Shown here: positions 39,436-47,688 of the stretch, piece by piece
How the letters are laid out: each line of letters opens with the position of its first letter
How positions within the stretch are numbered: position 1 is the first letter of the stretch
Source of the DNA: an uncultured Dehalococcoidaceae bacterium
Lineage (GTDB): Bacteria; Chloroflexota; Dehalococcoidia; Dehalococcoidales; RBG-16-60-22
Length of the DNA: 64,000 nucleotides
Assembly (NCBI GenBank): GCA_964493435.1
Contig: CAZBMB010000001.1
Span: 223,486-287,485 of the forward strand
Direction: 5' to 3'
Position numbers and translations under genes: made by a program
Notes under the pieces: model-generated
The model's input: only the letters and a program-made list of their open reading frames with translations
What the model was told of the DNA's origin: nothing
Databases searched by the model: none

Positions 39436-40206
39436 CTACTCTTCTTCTTCCTCTTCCTCCACATCAGCAGCGGCGGCGCCTGGTTCCTCGGTGATGCGTG
39501 GTAATAAAGCGGTCACCCTTTTCCGCGGTCGCGTCGGGAAGTCCGACTTATTGATTACTTGACGCAGTTCCTTGAGCTTTGCTGCCTGTTGGGCTGCTTT
39601 CACCGTAATGACCACACCGTCCATCCCTGCCTGCCACAGGGCCTTGAGTTCATCGCCGCCAACCGACATTGGCACGGTGGTAAGCAACGGTTTGGATAGA
39701 AGGTTGGCAAGTCGCTGACACAGCATGAGCCGGTGCCAGGTAATAACCGGCGCTTCCTCTTCGTCATCGGCCAGCAGTACCGCGTCTGCCGGCAGCTCGT
39801 TTATCGCTCTTAGCAGACCTTCACTTAAAGATGATTCAATGAGCAGGATTTTACCCATCTTCTCAATGCCCGCAAGGTCGAACGCTGAATTCAGAGGCAG
39901 GATAGCAAAATCGGCGCCAGCCTGGATATAACTTTTTAACTGCGGGACGTTTTCCCCTTCCAGCCACAGTCCCCAGACCGTGTTGGGTGGGGAGGGAAAA
40001 ACATCCTTTCCGGTGCTGGTTGGCGCTATGATGACCGCATCGGCGGCGGAAGCATAATCTGCCAGTTGCGCAGTGTTTTCTGGCGCCTCAATTCTGGCAA
40101 TAAGCGCCATCTTGGGCTTTGACGGTACTGTCCTGCTAGCTTTGAATCCCATCGGCAGGGAAATCGTTTCCGTGGTCTGGATAAGTCTATCGATAAGCTT
40201 GCTCAT
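39436..40206 (-). CDS. hypothetical protein with poly-Glu C-terminus
   Basis: 256 aa. An alternating beta/alpha-like pattern (ADAVIIAP, GADFAILP, ADAVLLADD, GMDGVVITV) ends in DVEEEEEEE. I recognise no family. Confidence 0.5.
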   Translation of the reverse strand: MSKLIDRLIQTTETISLPMGFKASRTVPSKPKMALIARIEAPENTAQLADYASAADAVIIAPTSTGKDVFPSPPNTVWGLWLEGENVPQLKSYIQAGADFAILPLNSAFDLAGIEKMGKILLIESSLSEGLLRAINELPADAVLLADDEEEAPVITWHRLMLCQRLANLLSKPLLTTVPMSVGGDELKALWQAGMDGVVITVKAAQQAAKLKELRQVINKSDFPTRPRKRVTALLPRITEEPGAAAADVEEEEEEE

Positions 40207-41421: not shown

Positions 41422-42285
41422 GTGTTACTTGAGATGGAGAGTAAGGTTACCGAGCACCAAAAGGCTGCTCTAGATGTTCTTCTGGAGAAAGTATATCAGG
41501 ATAGCGGCCATGATTTCCGTGACTACAGACGTGGCACCGTGGCACGTCGCCTTGAGAGGAGAATGCTGGCCACAGGTGTGACAAGCTACGTTGACTATAT
41601 GTACTTTTTAGACTCGCACCCTGAGGAATACAACCGATTTGTCAGCTACCTGACTATAAAGGTCAGCCGTTTCTTTCGAAGTCGATATACTTTTCAGCAG
41701 ATGTCGGCCATGATATTGCCAGAACTATTGTCAAATAAAATAAAACAGAGAGATTTCGGTTTGAAGTTCTGGAGCGCCGGCTGTGCCCACGGCGAGGAAC
41801 CGTATTCAATAGCGATAATGATGGCGGATTTTCTTGGGGAAAACCGTGCCGACTTTAATATCAACATTTATGCCTCTGATATAGACTATCTCGATATGAA
41901 AAGATTGCGGCCCGGGGTTTTCGCCGCGGCAGAGGTTGAAGACCTGCCACGTTCCATTCTGGACAGGTATTTTCTTTCTTATGGGGAAGAATATGAAGTA
42001 ATACCGGATATCAGGCATATGGTCCATTTTTTCCATCTTGACCTTGCCGCAGCAGATGGGCAGGCGCTACCCTCGATGGACTGCATATTCTGCTGCAACG
42101 TTTTGATTTATTTTCAAAGGCAACTTCAGGAGAGGGTGCTCAACAGGCTTTATCATTCGCTGGTGGTACCCGGCTATCTGGTTCTCGGTGAAGTGGAAAC
42201 CCCGACCACTGCCTTGCTTCAGAAAATGGAATGCCTTGATAGCAAGGCGAAGATATATAAGAAGGTTAGTGCTGGCGGCAGCTGA
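41422..42285 (+). CDS. cheR: CheR-type protein-glutamate O-methyltransferase
   Basis: 287 aa with a GTG start; the alternative is ATG 41434. It has the N-terminal helical domain (DFRDYRRGTVARRLERRM) and the SAM-binding motifs FWSAGCAHGEEPYSIAI, ASDID and IFCCNVLIYF. Confidence 0.85.
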   Translation: MLLEMESKVTEHQKAALDVLLEKVYQDSGHDFRDYRRGTVARRLERRMLATGVTSYVDYMYFLDSHPEEYNRFVSYLTIKVSRFFRSRYTFQQMSAMILPELLSNKIKQRDFGLKFWSAGCAHGEEPYSIAIMMADFLGENRADFNINIYASDIDYLDMKRLRPGVFAAAEVEDLPRSILDRYFLSYGEEYEVIPDIRHMVHFFHLDLAAADGQALPSMDCIFCCNVLIYFQRQLQERVLNRLYHSLVVPGYLVLGEVETPTTALLQKMECLDSKAKIYKKVSAGGS

Positions 42286-42306
42286 TATATATAGGAGATA
42301 GTGAAG

Positions 42307-43761
42307 ATGGCGGGCAATTCGTTATTAACCAGTGATGAAATATCGCGGAAAGCGGCGGCCATAAGGTCGCTGTCACTGCTCTGGACAGCGACCTGTTGCG
42401 TCGGCCAGATTATCATCATCTTGGTCTGGCTGTTCAATCCTTTTTTCATTGTGCTGCCACTGTCCCTGATGGCCATTACCTCCATAGCTATCGGGGCGGT
42501 GACCTACTGGCTGTACCGGTCGGGCAGGGTTGAGCTGTCCGGTTATTTCTTTACCATTGCTGTGGTGCTGTTCAGCTCGGTGATAACACCGCTGTTTGGC
42601 GGTTTCACCGGCCCGCTGCCCGTAATCTATATTTTCGCCATCCTCGTCGCTGGCGTAATGATTAATATCCGGGCCGGTTTCTACATTGCGGCGCTATCCG
42701 GCGTTCTTTATCTGGCCACCATTGGCATCGAGAATACGGGTCTGCTTTCCAGCCTGATAAAGCCGGAAGCGGAAGCGATTGCCATACCCTATATTACGGT
42801 GATAATCTTTGTGCTGTTCTTCTTCACGGCTGCGTTCATGAGCTGGTTTGCTGCCAGTGGGCTGCAACGGGCCCTGCGGGATGTCCGCAGCTATGCTGCG
42901 GAGCTGCAAACGGCCAATGAAAAGCTTCAGGCCAGCGAGGAGGAGCTTAGGGCGGCTAACGAGGAACTGAGGGCAATTGAGGAAGAATTGCGGGCCAGTA
43001 ATGAAGAGCTTACGACGGCCAACGAGGAGTTGCAGGAAACGCAGGACCAGCTGGTCCGCACCGAGCGGCTGGCCGCGATTGGCCAGCTGGCGGGGGGTGT
43101 GGGTCACGAATTGAGAAATCCGCTTGGTGCCATCAAGAATGCCGTTTACTATATCAAGGGCAGGTTGGCTAAAAGTGAGCTGGTGGCAAAAGAGCCGCGG
43201 GTCATGGAATTCCTTGACATTGTGGAAGATGAGGTAGGTGCCTCCAATAAAATCATCAACGACCTTCTCGGTTTTTCCCGTGTCAGCAAGCCAATGGTGG
43301 CGCCCACACCGGTGAGAGGACTGATAGCTGAGGCCTTATCCAAAGTACCTATTCCGGAGAATGTTCAGCTGAGCCAGGATATTGACTCCGATTCAACCGA
43401 GGTTGCCGTTGATGCGGAACAGATACAGCAGGTGCTGGCGAATGTTATCGCCAATGCGGTGCAGGCAATGCCAGAAGGAGGCAGATTGACCATAAGCGCC
43501 AGGGTAAAGAAAGGATTTCTGGAGCTGGAAGTAACCGACACCGGAAGTGGTATTGCGGATGAAAACAAGGACAAAATTTTTGAACCCCTGTTTACCACCA
43601 AGGCCAAAGGCATCGGGCTGGGGCTGGCCGTCAGTAAATCAATAATTGACCGCCACGGCGGGCAAATTGAAGCCAGAAGCGCAGTTGACAGGGGTACCAC
43701 ATTCACCATCAGGTTGCCCCTGGCGGCAATGGTTCAGGAGGGCATCGTTGGGAAAAAATAA
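42307..43761 (+). CDS. membrane sensor histidine kinase (about 6 TM, heptad coil, HisKA, HATPase)
   Basis: ATG 42307 lies 8 nt after AGGAG(A); the ORF track starts at GTG 42301. It has hydrophobic segments, the coil ELQTANEKLQASEEELRAANEELRAIEEELRASNEELTTANEELQETQDQL, H-box GVGHELRNPL, and N/G boxes (NVIANAVQAM, DTGSGI, GIGLGL). Confidence 0.88.
   Translation: MAGNSLLTSDEISRKAAAIRSLSLLWTATCCVGQIIIILVWLFNPFFIVLPLSLMAITSIAIGAVTYWLYRSGRVELSGYFFTIAVVLFSSVITPLFGGFTGPLPVIYIFAILVAGVMINIRAGFYIAALSGVLYLATIGIENTGLLSSLIKPEAEAIAIPYITVIIFVLFFFTAAFMSWFAASGLQRALRDVRSYAAELQTANEKLQASEEELRAANEELRAIEEELRASNEELTTANEELQETQDQLVRTERLAAIGQLAGGVGHELRNPLGAIKNAVYYIKGRLAKSELVAKEPRVMEFLDIVEDEVGASNKIINDLLGFSRVSKPMVAPTPVRGLIAEALSKVPIPENVQLSQDIDSDSTEVAVDAEQIQQVLANVIANAVQAMPEGGRLTISARVKKGFLELEVTDTGSGIADENKDKIFEPLFTTKAKGIGLGLAVSKSIIDRHGGQIEARSAVDRGTTFTIRLPLAAMVQEGIVGKK
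42901..43047 (+). repeat. Seven consecutive 21-nt (heptad-encoding) units within the kinase gene
   Basis: The translation gives seven heptads: ELQTANE, KLQASEE, ELRAANE, ELRAIEE, ELRASNE, ELTTANE, ELQETQD. The DNA units are degenerate but share a GAG/GAA-CTn framework. Confidence 0.8.
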
Positions 43762-44491
43762 CGGACAGACCAATATTCTGGTGGTTGATGATTTGCGCAA
43801 CATGCGTCTGACACTGGGCGGCATACTTGAGGATGAAGGGTACAGTGTCACGATGGTGGAAGATGGCTACCAGGCTATAGAAGCGGTCAGGAATCGGCGC
43901 TTTGATGCCATTTTCATTGATATCAAGATGCCGGGGATAGACGGGGTGCAGACTTTCCGGGAGATTAAAAAGATAGACCCTGATGTGGCTGCGGTGATGA
44001 TGACCGCCTACTCGGTTGAGGAACTGGTCAAGGAAGCCCTGGAGGAAGGCGCCCACGCTATTATCTATAAACCATTCGATATCAGCATGGTTATCGGCAT
44101 CATCGAAGAGTTGCTGACCACCAAAACGCTGGTGCTGGTGGTCGATGACCATCATGCTGACCGGGAGACATTGAAAGCAATTCTGGAGGAAAAAGAATAC
44201 CGGGTGGCCACGGCTGCTGACGGTTCTGAAGCAATTGACATGGTCAGGAGCCGCCATTATGACGTAATTTTCCTGGACGTAAGACTGCCGGATATGACCG
44301 GGTTTGAGACTTTTGAGCAGGTGAAAAAGATTGACCCGCAGGCCGCGGTGATAATGATGACCGGCTACGCTGAGGAAGACCTGATGAAAAGCGCCGTTGG
44401 GGCGGGTGCCTTCACGTATCTGTACAAGCCATTTGATATGGAAAAAGTAATCGCTATGATTGAGGCTCTATCCCGGGAGAAAAAGAAATGA
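43748..44491 (+). CDS. tandem-receiver response regulator (REC-REC, no output domain)
   Basis: Two receiver domains are present: ILVVDD...[11 protein letters not shown]...MMTAY and VLVVDD...[11 protein letters not shown]...MMTGY. The ORF track start (TTG 43646) lies deep inside the kinase gene. TTG 43748 is preferred because AGGAGG sits at 43736-43741. The start remains uncertain. Confidence 0.8.
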
Positions 44492-46545
44492 ACCCTTTCT
44501 CACCCGCCATACTGGTTGTAGAGGACGATGCGGGGGCGAGGACAACGCTCTGTGGCATACTTGAGGAAGTCGGTTACGGAGTCGTCGGCCTGGAAAGAGG
44601 GGCTGATGCGCTGAAGGTAATGAAAAAGGGCCATTTTGACGTCGTAATCGTGGACATAAAGCTGCCCGACGTCAGCGGGCTGACGATACTGGAGATGGCC
44701 AAGGAAATTAATCCCGAGGTAGCGGTAATCATTACTACCGGATATGCCAGCGTGGAGACAGCTGTGGAGGCGGTCAATCAGGGGGCTTACGCGTATTTTG
44801 TCAAACCGGTCAATCCGGATGAAATTAAAAATGCCATTGCCAATGCGCTCAGACAGCAGCGGCTTTCTCTGGAGAATAAAAAACTGGTGGAAGGATTGCA
44901 GCGCTCCAGTAAACTGCTCTTTGAAACCAATGACAAGCTGCAGAATGACATCGCCGAGCGCAAGCGAATTGAGGATGCGCTGCGACTGTCCGCGAATCAG
45001 TTGCGAACCACGTTTGATGCCATCGGTGACGCGGTCTGCCTGCTGGATGATGACGCTAACATCGTGCGCTGTAACAAAGCGATGACCGACCTCATAGATA
45101 AATCATACAGCGATATCAATGGCCGAAACTGCTGCGAACTTTTACATGGCCTGAAGGGACCCGTAAAAGGGTGCCCTTTTGTTCGTATGAAAAAGACTGG
45201 TTGTCGGGCAACTCAGGAGATGTTTCTGGATGGGAAGTGGCTTGAAATCGCCGTTGACCCTCTCACTGACGATGATGGCAATATCATTGGTGCGGTGCAC
45301 GTTATCGCTGATATCACCGAGCGCTGGCGGTGGGAAGAGGCTCTGCGGCAGTCGGAAGAATTCAGCTCAGCACTACTGAGAAATGCGCCCTATCCGCTGC
45401 TGGTGCTCAATGCGGATACTTCAATCAAATACGTGAATCCAGCACTGGAAGAGCTATCTGGATTTAGCATGGCTCAGGTCTTTGGTATGAAAGCGCCGTA
45501 CCCATGGTGGACGAAAGAGACCTGGGACAGAACCAAGCGGGATTTTTATTCGGCACTGAGTGGAGGTGCCGTAGGCAAGGAAGAGCTGTTCCAGAAGAAA
45601 AACGGGGAGCGATTCTGGGTTAACATAAACTCTGCGCCAGTGGTCATAGACAGCGAACATAAATATTATTTGGCCAACTGGGTTGATATCACCGAGCGGA
45701 AGCGAATGGAGCAGGAGTTAAAGGAAAAAAGCAAACTGCTGGAGGTAAAGAACAAGAAACTTGAGACGCAGAGTCAGGAGCTGATGAAGCAGGAGCAGGA
45801 GCTTGTGGAGAAGACCAGGGAACTGGAGGTGGCCAATAAAGCTAAATCTGAATTTCTGGCTCATATGTCGCATGAACTGCGCACTCCGCTTAACGTAGTT
45901 ATCGGTTTCTCCGAGTTGATGCTGGATGGCGCCGTAGGCGAACTGGGCGAGGAACATATAAAATGCCTGAAAGATATTCTGGGCAGCGGGCAGCACCTGC
46001 TGAGTCTTATCAACGATATTCTGGATCTGTCCAAGATAGAGGCCGGCAAGATGGAACTGAAAATGAGAAATATCGCGCTACAGAACATTCTGGATACATT
46101 GAGAAATGAGTTGATGCCCATCATCCACCGGCGGAAGCAAAACCTTGAAGTGGTCATTGAGAATAGGCTGCCACCAGTACGGGCCGACCGGAATAAAATA
46201 CGGCAGGTGCTGCTCAATCTGCTGAGCAATTCCACCAAATTCACTCCAGACGGTGGTCATCTGCGTGTGGAGGTATTCAGGGAAAATGGCTGGTGCCGGG
46301 TCAGCGTTATAGATGATGGTGTTGGTATAAAAAAGAAGGACCAGAAAACCATTTTTGAACCTTTCAGCCAGATTGACGGTCCGGTGCTCAGGGAAGCAGG
46401 TGGTACGGGTCTCGGACTGGCCATTACCAAGCAAATCATTGAGAAGCACGGTGGCAAAATATGGGTGGACAGTGAATATGGCAAAGGGAGCCGGTTCCAC
46501 TTCACCTTGCCCCTGGCCAGAAAGGGCGTTATTCATCCAGCATAG
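44488..46545 (+). CDS. hybrid sensor histidine kinase (N-terminal REC, coiled coil, two PAS, HisKA, HATPase)
   Basis: 685 aa; ILVVEDD...[13 protein letters not shown] receiver, two PAS-like segments, H-box [10 protein letters not shown], and G-boxes DDGVGI and GTGLGLAI. The start overlaps the upstream stop (ATGA). Confidence 0.88.
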
Positions 46546-46578: not shown

Positions 46579-46968
46579 GTGCTACAGGACAAAGTAATGA
46601 TAGTTGAAGATAACCCGCAGAATATGAAGTTAATTGAGATGCTTTTAAGAGCGAAGAACTACGTTCTGCTCAAGGCGTGTGACGGAGAGGAGGCGCTGGA
46701 TACGGCGACCCGGGAACAGCCTGATCTGATTATCATGGATATGCAGCTTCCCAAAATGAGTGGGGTTGAGGTAACCAAGCGGCTCAGACAGATGCCTGTT
46801 TTCAGCCATACACCAATAATTGCGCTCACTGCCTATGCCATGAGAGGGGACAAGGAGCGATTTCTGGAAGCCGGCTGCAATGCCTATATCTCAAAGCCGA
46901 TTAATACCCGTGAACTGCCTGAAATTATCGCCCGGATGTTGCAGGAATATAAGAAAATTGATGCTTAG
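46579..46968 (+). CDS. single-domain response regulator (CheY/DivK-like)
   Basis: 129 aa; GTG start 6 nt after AGGAGG; VMIVEDNPQNMKL, IIMDMQLPKMSG, ALTAYAM, KP. Confidence 0.88.
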   Translation: MLQDKVMIVEDNPQNMKLIEMLLRAKNYVLLKACDGEEALDTATREQPDLIIMDMQLPKMSGVEVTKRLRQMPVFSHTPIIALTAYAMRGDKERFLEAGCNAYISKPINTRELPEIIARMLQEYKKIDA

Positions 46969-46980
46969 AATGGTGCGAAG

Positions 46981-47688
46981 ATGGCTAAAAAGATATTGAT
47001 TGTTGATGATGATCCGGCAATGGTAAGATTGCTGGCACAGGTCCTGACTGGGAAAGGATATGAAGTGCTTGAGTCCAATAATGGCCAGGATGCGCTGCGC
47101 CTGCTGTACAAAGACAAACCAGACCTGGTGTTGCTTGATGTGGTCATGCCCACCATGGATGGCTGGCAGACCTGCAGTCGTATTCGTGACGTGGCGGCCG
47201 CGATACCGATTATCATGCTTAGCGGTCGGCGTAAAACGGAGGAAGATGTGGTCCGTGGTCTGGACCACGGCGCTGATGATTATCTTATTAAGCCGATAGG
47301 CAATAAGGAACTGATGGCCAGGGTACAGGCAATGCTGCGGCGGGCTGAGCTTCCCTCATCTATGGCAGGGGAGGGCAAATATGCTAGCTTTGGTGATGGC
47401 TATCTTACCGTAGATATAACGCAGCACAAGGTAACCGTCAGTGGCAAGCGGGTAAAATTAACGCCTATCGAGTTTCGGTTGCTGGCGCTGCTGCTGCAGA
47501 ACAGTGGTCGCATCATGACGCACCAGCAATTGCTGGAAAAGGTATGGGGCTGGGAATATGTTGACGACCTGGACTATGTACGTATTTATATCTCGCATCT
47601 TCGGCGTAAGATAGAACCGGATGCTACCTTGCCCAAATATATCATCACCGAACCGGGTGTTGGTTACTATTTTCAAAAGCCAGCCTGA
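46981..47688 (+). CDS. OmpR/PhoB-family DNA-binding response regulator
   Basis: 235 aa; receiver (ILIVDDD, LLDVVMPTMDG) plus a winged-helix C-terminus (LTPIEFRLLALLLQNSGRIMTHQQLLEKVWG...YISHLRRKIE). Confidence 0.9.
   Translation: MAKKILIVDDDPAMVRLLAQVLTGKGYEVLESNNGQDALRLLYKDKPDLVLLDVVMPTMDGWQTCSRIRDVAAAIPIIMLSGRRKTEEDVVRGLDHGADDYLIKPIGNKELMARVQAMLRRAELPSSMAGEGKYASFGDGYLTVDITQHKVTVSGKRVKLTPIEFRLLALLLQNSGRIMTHQQLLEKVWGWEYVDDLDYVRIYISHLRRKIEPDATLPKYIITEPGVGYYFQKPA

Follow-up and report, generated by a model that had tools for sequence, protein, structure and literature searches.

Introduction

The enzymes CheR and CheB are known from textbooks for their modification of chemoreceptors. Orphan CheRs and CheB-CheR-PAS proteins are nevertheless widespread, also in lineages that are generally regarded as non-motile, and we know of no substrate for either group. 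Here, we analysed a stretch of 64,000 nucleotides (hereafter the window) from contig CAZBMB010000001.1 of an uncultured Dehalococcoidaceae bacterium, in which a standalone CheR gene lies directly upstream of a gene for a membrane sensor histidine kinase. The linker between the membrane region of this kinase and its DHp domain is a Glu-rich array of N-E-E-L-type heptads, which we refer to as the NEEL coil. Our sequence comparisons indicate that the NEEL coil occurs almost only in proteins that are fused to CheR or encoded beside it, and for this reason we consider it the best candidate yet for a CheR substrate other than a chemoreceptor.

The closest described counterparts are the methylation helices of methyl-accepting chemotaxis proteins (MCPs) such as Tar and Tsr, which undergo CheR/CheB adaptation; MCPs are described as the substrate of both enzymes (PMC10767990, PMC3447774). 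These helices consist of acidic heptads in which Glu-Glu pairs are followed by small residues (E-E-x-x-A-S/T; PMC1079850), carry several equivalent sites one heptad apart and lie between the sensor and the kinase-controlling region. The window coil resembles them in all of these respects, and, as in MCP systems, a neighbouring gene encodes a CheR-family enzyme whose catalytic residues are conserved. Unlike MCPs, however, the window kinase has neither an MCPsignal domain nor an antiparallel four-helix bundle, and its coil, the methylation of which we infer, departs from the ten-residue MCP consensus and feeds directly into a HisKA-type DHp domain instead of a CheA/CheW array. Neither CheB nor an MCP tip motif was found in the 64-kb window or in nine related Dehalococcoidia loci, and CheA and CheW were likewise absent from the window and the related loci according to Pfam.

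CheR also acts outside of flagellar chemotaxis in chemosensory pathways with alternative cellular functions (CheR-TPR, Wsp-type; PMC3447774), the clusters of which, similar to the one described here, abound in multidomain REC proteins, hybrid kinases and transcription regulators. In those pathways the target system of CheR still consists of an MCP-like receptor together with CheA and CheW, whereas none of these is present in the window or the related loci. A further group, the CheB-CheR-PAS-(NEEL coil)-PAS_10 proteins, is annotated only as CheR-family methyltransferases with PAS sensors. These proteins share the heptad consensus of the window coil, and some have HisKA/HATPase kinases as output. 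Their CheR domain, and usually also CheB, is part of the same polypeptide and their coil lies between two PAS domains, whereas the window has a separate CheR gene, no CheB and a coil that leads straight from a membrane sensor into the DHp domain. Judged by its consensus, the window coil is the kinase-borne form of a module that is otherwise found almost only inside CheB-CheR-PAS multidomain proteins.

Results

The window kinase carries a conserved array of Glu-Glu heptads

The kinase gene and its parts are located as follows (positions within the window):

42307-43761, + strand: membrane sensor histidine kinase gene (HisKA 3e-08, HATPase_c 4.3e-28; Pfam)
42313-42831, + strand: polytopic membrane sensor region of about six helices with very short loops (Kyte-Doolittle, AlphaFold2)
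42763-43170, + strand: single continuous predicted helix from the last membrane helix through the NEEL coil into DHp helix 1 (AlphaFold2)
42901-43047, + strand: seven heptads flagged by the initial annotation, residues 201-249 of the 486-aa open reading frame (translation)
42937-43031, + strand: strict run of five [N/E]-E-E-L heptads (EEEL, NEEL, EEEL, NEEL, NEEL) with the candidate methyl-accepting Glu-Glu pairs (DNA pattern)
43096-43125, + strand: H-box GVGHELRNPL, residues 266-275, with the codon of the phospho-acceptor His (CAC) at 43105-43107

The list of open reading frames (ORFs) gives the kinase as 486 aa from GTG 42301 to 43761 (+). ATG 42307, with AGGAG 9 nt upstream, is likely the true start, and the start of a database protein that is 100% identical to the kinase (P0001, 484 aa) agrees with it. 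With an H-box containing the phospho-acceptor His and a HATPase_c domain, the protein is a HisKA-type sensor histidine kinase; H267, E268, R270, N271 and P272 are invariant in 71 orthologues, and the closest solved structures are the ZraS and YF1/FixL cores. Five to six hydrophobic segments lie between residues 37 and 177 (Kyte-Doolittle peaks at 37-55, 77-101, 105-123, 125-143 and 159-177), and AlphaFold2 (AF2) predicts helices at residues 3-43, 49-71, 75-96, 106-118, 121-143 and from 153 onwards. The sensor region matched no Pfam family and no PAS domain was detected in the kinase by Pfam.

The initial annotation described seven heptads in perfect register, several of them of the type E-E-L-R-A-[A/S]. 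This is exact: the translation of 42901-43047 (+) reads ELQTANE, KLQASEE, ELRAANE, ELRAIEE, ELRASNE, ELTTANE and ELQETQD, and EELRAA, EELRAI and EELRAS are all present. Over the seven heptads, 16 acidic (Asp/Glu) residues stand against 4 basic (Lys/Arg) ones. A DNA pattern of four consecutive [NKDE]EEL heptads has two overlapping matches at 42937-43031 and none in 100 dinucleotide-preserving shuffles of the window, and the heptad periodicity of the coil is thus more than chance. No tandem repeat was present at the coil at the DNA level, which indicates that the periodicity is maintained at the level of the protein. An antisense ORF (42694-43107, - strand, 137 aa) overlaps the coil; its Leu/Phe/Pro-rich product is almost certainly a by-product of reverse-complemented GAG/GAA/CTG-rich codons and not a gene.

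The Glu-Glu pairs are conserved in orthologues, a point on which the initial annotation had let its proposal depend. Among 71 orthologues of 49-84% identity, E211-E213, E219/E220, E225-E227 and E233/E234 are at least 90% conserved, as are the L, N, R and S residues between the pairs. The heptad consensus is N-E-E-L-[RQ]-A-[SAT]. In both coil families, the kinases and the CheR fusion proteins described below, E, E and L are the positions of lowest entropy and the next-but-one positions are limited to A/S/T.

The match to the MCP methylation site proposed by the initial annotation holds in part. The classical six-residue motif is found in two to three of the seven heptads, strictly in EELRAA (214) and EELRAS (228) and in relaxed form in EELTTA (235), and E-E-x-x-[AST]-[AST] also describes the heptad consensus of each of the two families. 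The ten-residue Alexander-Zhulin consensus, [ASTG][ASTG]xx[EQ][EQ]xx[ASTG][ASTG], in which the methylated residue occupies heptad position c (cited in PMC6829392), is matched nowhere in the kinase, because the strict seven-residue periodicity puts R or Q at the position four residues ahead of the Glu pair, for which the consensus demands a small residue. If the Leu of the heptad occupied position d, the Glu pair would lie at positions b and c, as in MCPs.

The coil is a phase-sensitive transmission helix

In an AF2 monomer model based on 71 orthologues, one helix spans residues 153-288 (P0001 numbering), with pLDDT values of 78-94 in 10-residue blocks over the seven heptads (89-94 in the first five, 78-91 in the last two). 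The distance between the last membrane anchor (SWF..) and the H-box in orthologues is 66, 73, 80, 87, 94 or 101 aa and falls into one class modulo 7 in 74 out of 76 cases, so that only whole heptads have been gained or lost. With such whole-heptad length changes and one continuous predicted helix, the coil is clearly a phase-sensitive transmission helix of the kinase and has the features of a signalling coiled-coil linker of the S-helix type, namely a continuous helix from sensor to output and length variation that preserves the heptad phase. The choice offered by the initial annotation, a CheR substrate or docking helix rather than a passive linker, is therefore a false one. The continuity of the mostly high-confidence predicted helix into the DHp domain suggests that the coil is well placed to control the kinase. 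In our reading, the seven heptads are the core of a signalling coiled coil that forms a rigid link from the membrane sensor to the phospho-acceptor helix in a kinase dimer.

There is no solved structure in the PDB over the NEEL array; matches of the kinase begin at about residue 241, and those of CheR-PAS-coil proteins are confined to the CheR part. A search with the coil alone (59 aa) against a set of 5.8 billion proteins gave no significant match, probably because the query is short and compositionally biased.

An intact CheR gene lies directly upstream of the kinase gene

41422-42285, + strand: standalone CheR-family glutamate O-methyltransferase gene, 287 aa (CheR_N, PF03705, 3e-15; CheR, PF01739, 1.5e-45)

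As the initial annotation had stated, CheR is a separate polypeptide and the coil sits on the kinase. The CheR gene is intact and forms an ORF of its own with its own stop codon, located 15-21 nt upstream of the kinase start, and the kinase has its own ribosome-binding site. The protein has the CheR_N and CheR S-adenosylmethionine (SAM)-binding domains of the family together with the conserved catalytic residues. The residues aligned to R53, R98, D154 and Y235 of E. coli CheR are all conserved, and the equivalents of R98, Y235 and D154 are fully conserved in every kinase-linked CheR examined. We take these four residues of the E. coli/Salmonella enzyme to serve receptor-helix contact, methyl transfer catalysis or SAM binding, and on the strength of their conservation the window CheR looks active. 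It is not an E. coli-type CheR equivalog (NF007902; 130 bits compared with a cut-off of 435 bits) and lacks the 4-residue insertion of E. coli CheR in the beta-subdomain region. Its nearest relatives in a search of 1.84 billion proteins are standalone CheRs and CheB-CheR fusions, mixed, with 34-43% identity.

A CheR-blind genome scan finds the NEEL coil almost only with CheR

The initial annotation had proposed to ask whether such coils co-occur with CheR, and the outcome is strongly positive. One genome for each of 185,579 species was scanned with the DNA pattern of four consecutive [NKDE]EEL heptads, which is blind to CheR. The first 120 stretches listed (at least 120 were found) gave 111 coil-bearing ORF segments, 19 of which lie too near the edge of the fetched block to be judged, leaving 92 that could be assessed. 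Among the matches listed, CheR is present in the same ORF or locus for 90 of these 92 segments. In 88, a CheR domain lies within the same ORF, 181-244 aa upstream of the coil; in 2, a frameshifted fusion and a Dehalococcoidaceae orthologue of the window kinase, it is encoded at the same locus; and in 2 it was not detected, of which L033 is the sole clear negative. The stretches listed come from Bacteroidota, Alpha-, Beta- and Gammaproteobacteria, the delta-type Desulfobacteraceae and Syntrophaceae, Cyanobacteria, Streptomyces, Planctomycetota, Acidobacteriota, Verrucomicrobiota, Chloroflexota, Spirochaetota, Myxococcota, Paenibacillus and one Bathyarchaeota metagenome-assembled genome (MAG).

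The fusion proteins have the Pfam architecture CheB - CheR_N - CheR - PAS-like - NEEL coil - PAS_10, followed by further PAS/GAF domains and by HisKA/HATPase or GGDEF. Again among the matches listed, 73 proteins have a visible N-terminus, 65 with a fused CheB and 8 without. Their arrays comprise 4-14 heptads with the consensus N-E-E-L-x-[AST]-[AST], and their CheR domain is 38-43% identical to the window CheR. The window coil, with five consecutive [N/E]EEL heptads, has the regular array of at least four N-E-E-L-type heptads that marks this family; the window kinase has no CheR in the same polypeptide and its coil does not lie between PAS and PAS_10. The CheB-CheR-PAS-kinase fusions with NEEL-type runs that the initial annotation mentioned do exist, except that the coil follows CheR at a distance, behind the PAS-like domain, and not directly. 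In a third arrangement, a separate CheB ORF lies beside a CheR-PAS-NEEL coil-PAS protein (L149, L151, L153, L156, L161, L162, L167, L172, L173 and L206). CheR- or CheB-CheR-PAS-NEEL-coil proteins are also encoded in Streptomyces (L024, L025, L031), which are generally regarded as non-motile, and in the Bathyarchaeota MAG (L086).

These data bear on two alternatives. The first is that the array is a low-complexity or chance pattern without a specific function. Heptads rich in Glu, Leu and Ala are a frequent feature of coiled coils, and weak Pfam matches to the unrelated coiled-coil families Lebercilin and DivIC are of this kind, reflecting compositional resemblance. The absence of matches in 100 shuffles and of a DNA repeat, the conservation of the coil (at least 90%) across orthologues of about 50% identity and the CheR linkage of the assessable arrays effectively refute this idea, and we give it next to no weight.

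According to the second, the coil serves CheR as a surface for docking or regulation and not as a methyl acceptor, either resembling the NWETF pentapeptide, which tethers CheR on Tar and Tsr, or allowing CheR to act as a SAM-sensing subunit that modulates the kinase. Co-occurrence of CheR and coil would fit binding equally well, and the basic residue of CheR helix alpha-2 (the E. coli R53 equivalent) is conserved, and the coil is strongly acidic in composition. The covalent attachment of CheR in the fusion proteins would likewise fit a CheB-CheR unit serving as an input module. Docking would leave the full conservation of the equivalents of the catalytic residues R98 and Y235 and of the SAM-site residue D154 in kinase-linked CheRs unexplained, however, and a tether would have no need of 5-9 near-identical heptads, each with a Glu-Glu pair and small residues. 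The CheB esterase domains of most fusion proteins also argue for a real methylation cycle. We consider docking without methylation improbable.

Standalone CheRs lie upstream of unrelated kinases with the same heptads

In the reverse direction, we examined 80 metagenomic loci encoding relatives of the window CheR. In 26 of these, the protein is a fusion with the coil in the same ORF, and 7 show a canonical chemotaxis context with an MCP beside CheR. In the remaining group, standalone CheRs lie directly upstream of sensor kinases. Five unrelated kinases of this kind were found (L131 1729-4618, L134 4983-10005, L143 278-3863, L155 320-2442 and L175 4803-10084), with CHASE4-HAMP, dCache-HAMP, dCache-GAF or HAMP-GAF sensors and a HisKA subtype that differs from that of the window kinase; the standalone CheRs of these pairs have 31-57% identity. 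Every one of these kinases has [NS]-E-E-L heptads immediately before HisKA, which in L175 read NSELQAVNEELQAQSEELRQQAKEL, and those that are long enough to see are hybrid kinases with REC domains. The pairing of CheR with a coil-bearing kinase, as far as gene order and sequence tell, is thus one that reaches well beyond Dehalococcoidia. NEEL-type arrays are accordingly linked to CheR in three architectures, namely fused, split in Dehalococcoidia and split beside other kinases.

As a rough control, the 77 residues before the H-box were scored for in-register acidic-acidic-hydrophobic heptads in all kinases collected in the analysis. At least two such heptads are present in all 11 kinases encoded directly behind a standalone CheR, and 10 of these kinases have three or more. 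By comparison, one or no heptad was found in 27 of the 29 kinases neither fused nor adjacent to CheR, the two exceptions being second kinases of the same Dehalococcoidia cassette (see below), and in 18 of the 19 kinases fused to CheR in the same ORF. In fusion proteins ending in a kinase, the NEEL array lies further upstream, between PAS domains, and the linker before the DHp domain usually lacks EEL heptads. The presence of heptads before the H-box in kinases that neighbour CheR and their rarity in control and fused kinases indicate that the array tracks CheR and not the DHp domain. In a neighbour-joining tree, all CheRs adjacent to histidine kinases stand beside the fused clade and all seven MCP-adjacent CheRs fall outside, an arrangement that is only suggestive, since the deep nodes are without bootstrap support.

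A further alternative can be weighed here, namely that the coil is purely a phase-preserving linker of the S-helix or PAS-DHp type. The link to CheR would then reflect shared descent from the CheB-CheR-PAS family, and the CheR substrate would lie elsewhere: in another part of the kinase, in the REC-REC protein or second kinase of the cassette, or in MCPs encoded elsewhere. S-helix and PAS-DHp linkers of the FixL/YF1 type indeed share with the coil the continuous helix from sensor to DHp and length changes by whole heptads only, and the coil is placed as is canonical for them, connecting either sensor and DHp or two PAS domains. The same idea draws on the fusion proteins being one family, on the poor resolution of the deep CheR phylogeny, on the mismatch with the ten-residue MCP consensus and on the CheR-free array in L033. 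Ordinary linkers, however, vary at their surface and lack repeated Glu-Glu pairs, as seen in the 27 control kinases with one or no heptad. A pure linker gives no account of why two surface positions, both Glu, are the most conserved across two families and several kinase subtypes, of why the heptads appear in kinases with unrelated sensors and another HisKA subtype when a standalone CheR lies directly upstream, or of why the array moves away from the DHp domain in the fusion proteins. Nor was an alternative substrate seen in any locus. A pure linker therefore appears to us a rather unlikely explanation.

CheR and the coil-kinase belong to a mobile six-gene cassette

Downstream of CheR and the coil-kinase, the following genes complete a cassette:

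43748-44491, + strand: REC-REC protein (Pfam Response_reg x2)
44488-46545, + strand: REC-PAS-PAS-HisKA-HATPase hybrid kinase, the second kinase of the cassette (Pfam), with its position conserved in all related loci
46579-46968, + strand: single-domain response regulator (Pfam)
46981-47688, + strand: OmpR-type DNA-binding response regulator, the last gene of the cassette (Response_reg and Trans_reg_C)

By Pfam, the order is thus CheR, coil-kinase, REC-REC, REC-PAS-PAS kinase, single REC and OmpR-type regulator. TTG 43748, preceded by AGGAGG at a distance of 8 nt, is the most likely start of the REC-REC gene, which would then share 14 nt with the end of the kinase gene. L001 and L003 show this overlap as well, an indication that translation is coupled along the cassette. 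The cassette is complete in L008, from CheR to the OmpR-type regulator and in other genomic surroundings. Including L008, it occurs in at least two genomic contexts besides that of the window (L008 and the P0089 contig); it is a conserved, mobile six-gene unit.

CheR is retained immediately upstream of the coil-kinase in nine out of nine Dehalococcoidia kinase homologues examined, whatever the sensor module. In two loci there is a 4-nt overlap between the genes, and in the others a gap of up to about 85 nt. This linkage persists in at least three genomic contexts and irrespective of whether the sensor is of the six-transmembrane-helix, PAS or HAMP type. Sensors are swapped in modular fashion at one syntenic position (L003 8001-9236, L004 6001-7602, L007 6001-7857 and L008 6001-7923, compared with 42301-43761 in the window): the six-helix membrane domain, one PAS, two PAS or HAMP is joined to a nearly identical coil, DHp domain and catalytic core.

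A 774-aa protein with CheR_N, CheR, HisKA and HATPase domains (P0007; L001 8001-10325, L002 6449-8773) was considered as a natural CheR-kinase fusion and rejected. The genuine C-terminus of CheR lies in another reading frame in L001, so that P0007 is a frameshift read-through, the frameshift having arisen by recent mutation or by an error in sequencing. In the second cassette kinase (44488-46545), weaker heptads of the form x-Q-E-L precede the H-box at about residues 405-455, and the orthologues of this kinase in L003 and L210 have clearer NEEL-like heptads; it might be another CheR target. Upstream, at 39436-40206 (- strand), lies a gene for a conserved hypothetical protein of 256 aa that belongs to no Pfam family and ends in seven consecutive Glu. 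Most related loci have this gene in synteny but L008 lacks it, and it is thus not a member of the cassette.

Discussion

We propose, by analogy with chemoreceptors, that the Glu-Glu pairs of the NEEL coil are methyl acceptors of CheR and that the neutralisation of charge on the helix tunes the output of the kinase, and we give this reading an even chance of being correct. To this end, the translationally coupled CheR would use S-adenosylmethionine to methyl-esterify Glu residues of the conserved pairs. The loss of charge would alter the stability or packing of the helix and coil, which could shift the balance of kinase and phosphatase activity of the adjoining DHp domain, similar to the methylation of chemoreceptor helices. 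As there are several equivalent heptads per subunit, the tuning might be graded. The gene content of the window and the nine related loci, where no MCP tip motif or CheB is found and hence no canonical substrate is at hand, appears to favour this proposal. The description of the kinase as adaptation-capable in the initial annotation does not stand: with no CheB in the cassette, the modification here would be a slowly reversible set-point or a read-out of the SAM supply and not a fast reversible adaptation. A reversible methylation cycle is plausible in the fused family, where CheB is usually present.

Several observations weigh against methylation of the coil. The ten-residue MCP consensus has no match in the kinase and CheB is missing from the cassette. 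Known CheR substrates are antiparallel four-helix bundles, whereas the linker of the kinase is expected to be a parallel two-helix coil; no Pfam match to MCPsignal (PF00015), which forms such a bundle, was found in the kinase, and AF2 predicts a single helix running into the DHp domain. The a/d register of the coil cannot be fixed from the monomer model, in which the hydrophobic pattern of the coil is shifted by one residue relative to that of the DHp domain. CheB-containing fusions have no more Gln at the pair positions than CheB-less ones (about 3% each), so that the deamidation signature typical of MCPs is absent from the fusion proteins. L033 (2180-4969), a Spirochaetia REC-(NEEL coil)-PAS-PAS-kinase, has a very regular array, KANEELEETNEELEKANEELEETNEEL, and no CheR in its ORF or the 8-kb block. 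The 88 fusion proteins form one homologous family, which reduces the truly independent associations of CheR and coil to only about 3-7, and the split arrangement could itself descend from the CheB-CheR-PAS family, given that the deep CheR nodes are unsupported. A full-text literature search returned no description of NEEL coils, of CheR-dependent methylation of a histidine kinase or of a function of CheB-CheR-PAS proteins, an absence that is no proof in itself.

More tentatively, and with somewhat less confidence than we place in methylation of the window kinase, we suggest that the NEEL coil might be a portable methyl-accepting module and, as such, a second class of CheR/CheB substrate, independent of chemoreceptors, in many PAS, histidine kinase and GGDEF proteins of bacteria and some archaea, where it is fused with the enzymes or, as in the window, has a dedicated CheR gene beside it.

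Taken together, the locus and the comparative data point to one short, recognisable sequence element as the likely target of CheR, and CheR and the 484-aa kinase constitute a minimal two-gene system in which this idea can be tested. What would be new is the application of glutamate-methylation control, known in chemoreceptors, to the linker of a kinase. Should the proposal be refuted, the near-exclusive association of the NEEL coil with CheR would still need to be explained. If it is true, tuning by covalent methylation would be a property of classical histidine kinases as well as of chemotaxis arrays, an explanation would be at hand for a large class of signalling proteins that are so far uncharacterised, and a transferable module would become available for kinase engineering. 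If the coil is indeed portable, two-component and cyclic di-GMP signalling would possess a chemotaxis-style covalent memory or set-point, even in organisms without chemotaxis machinery.

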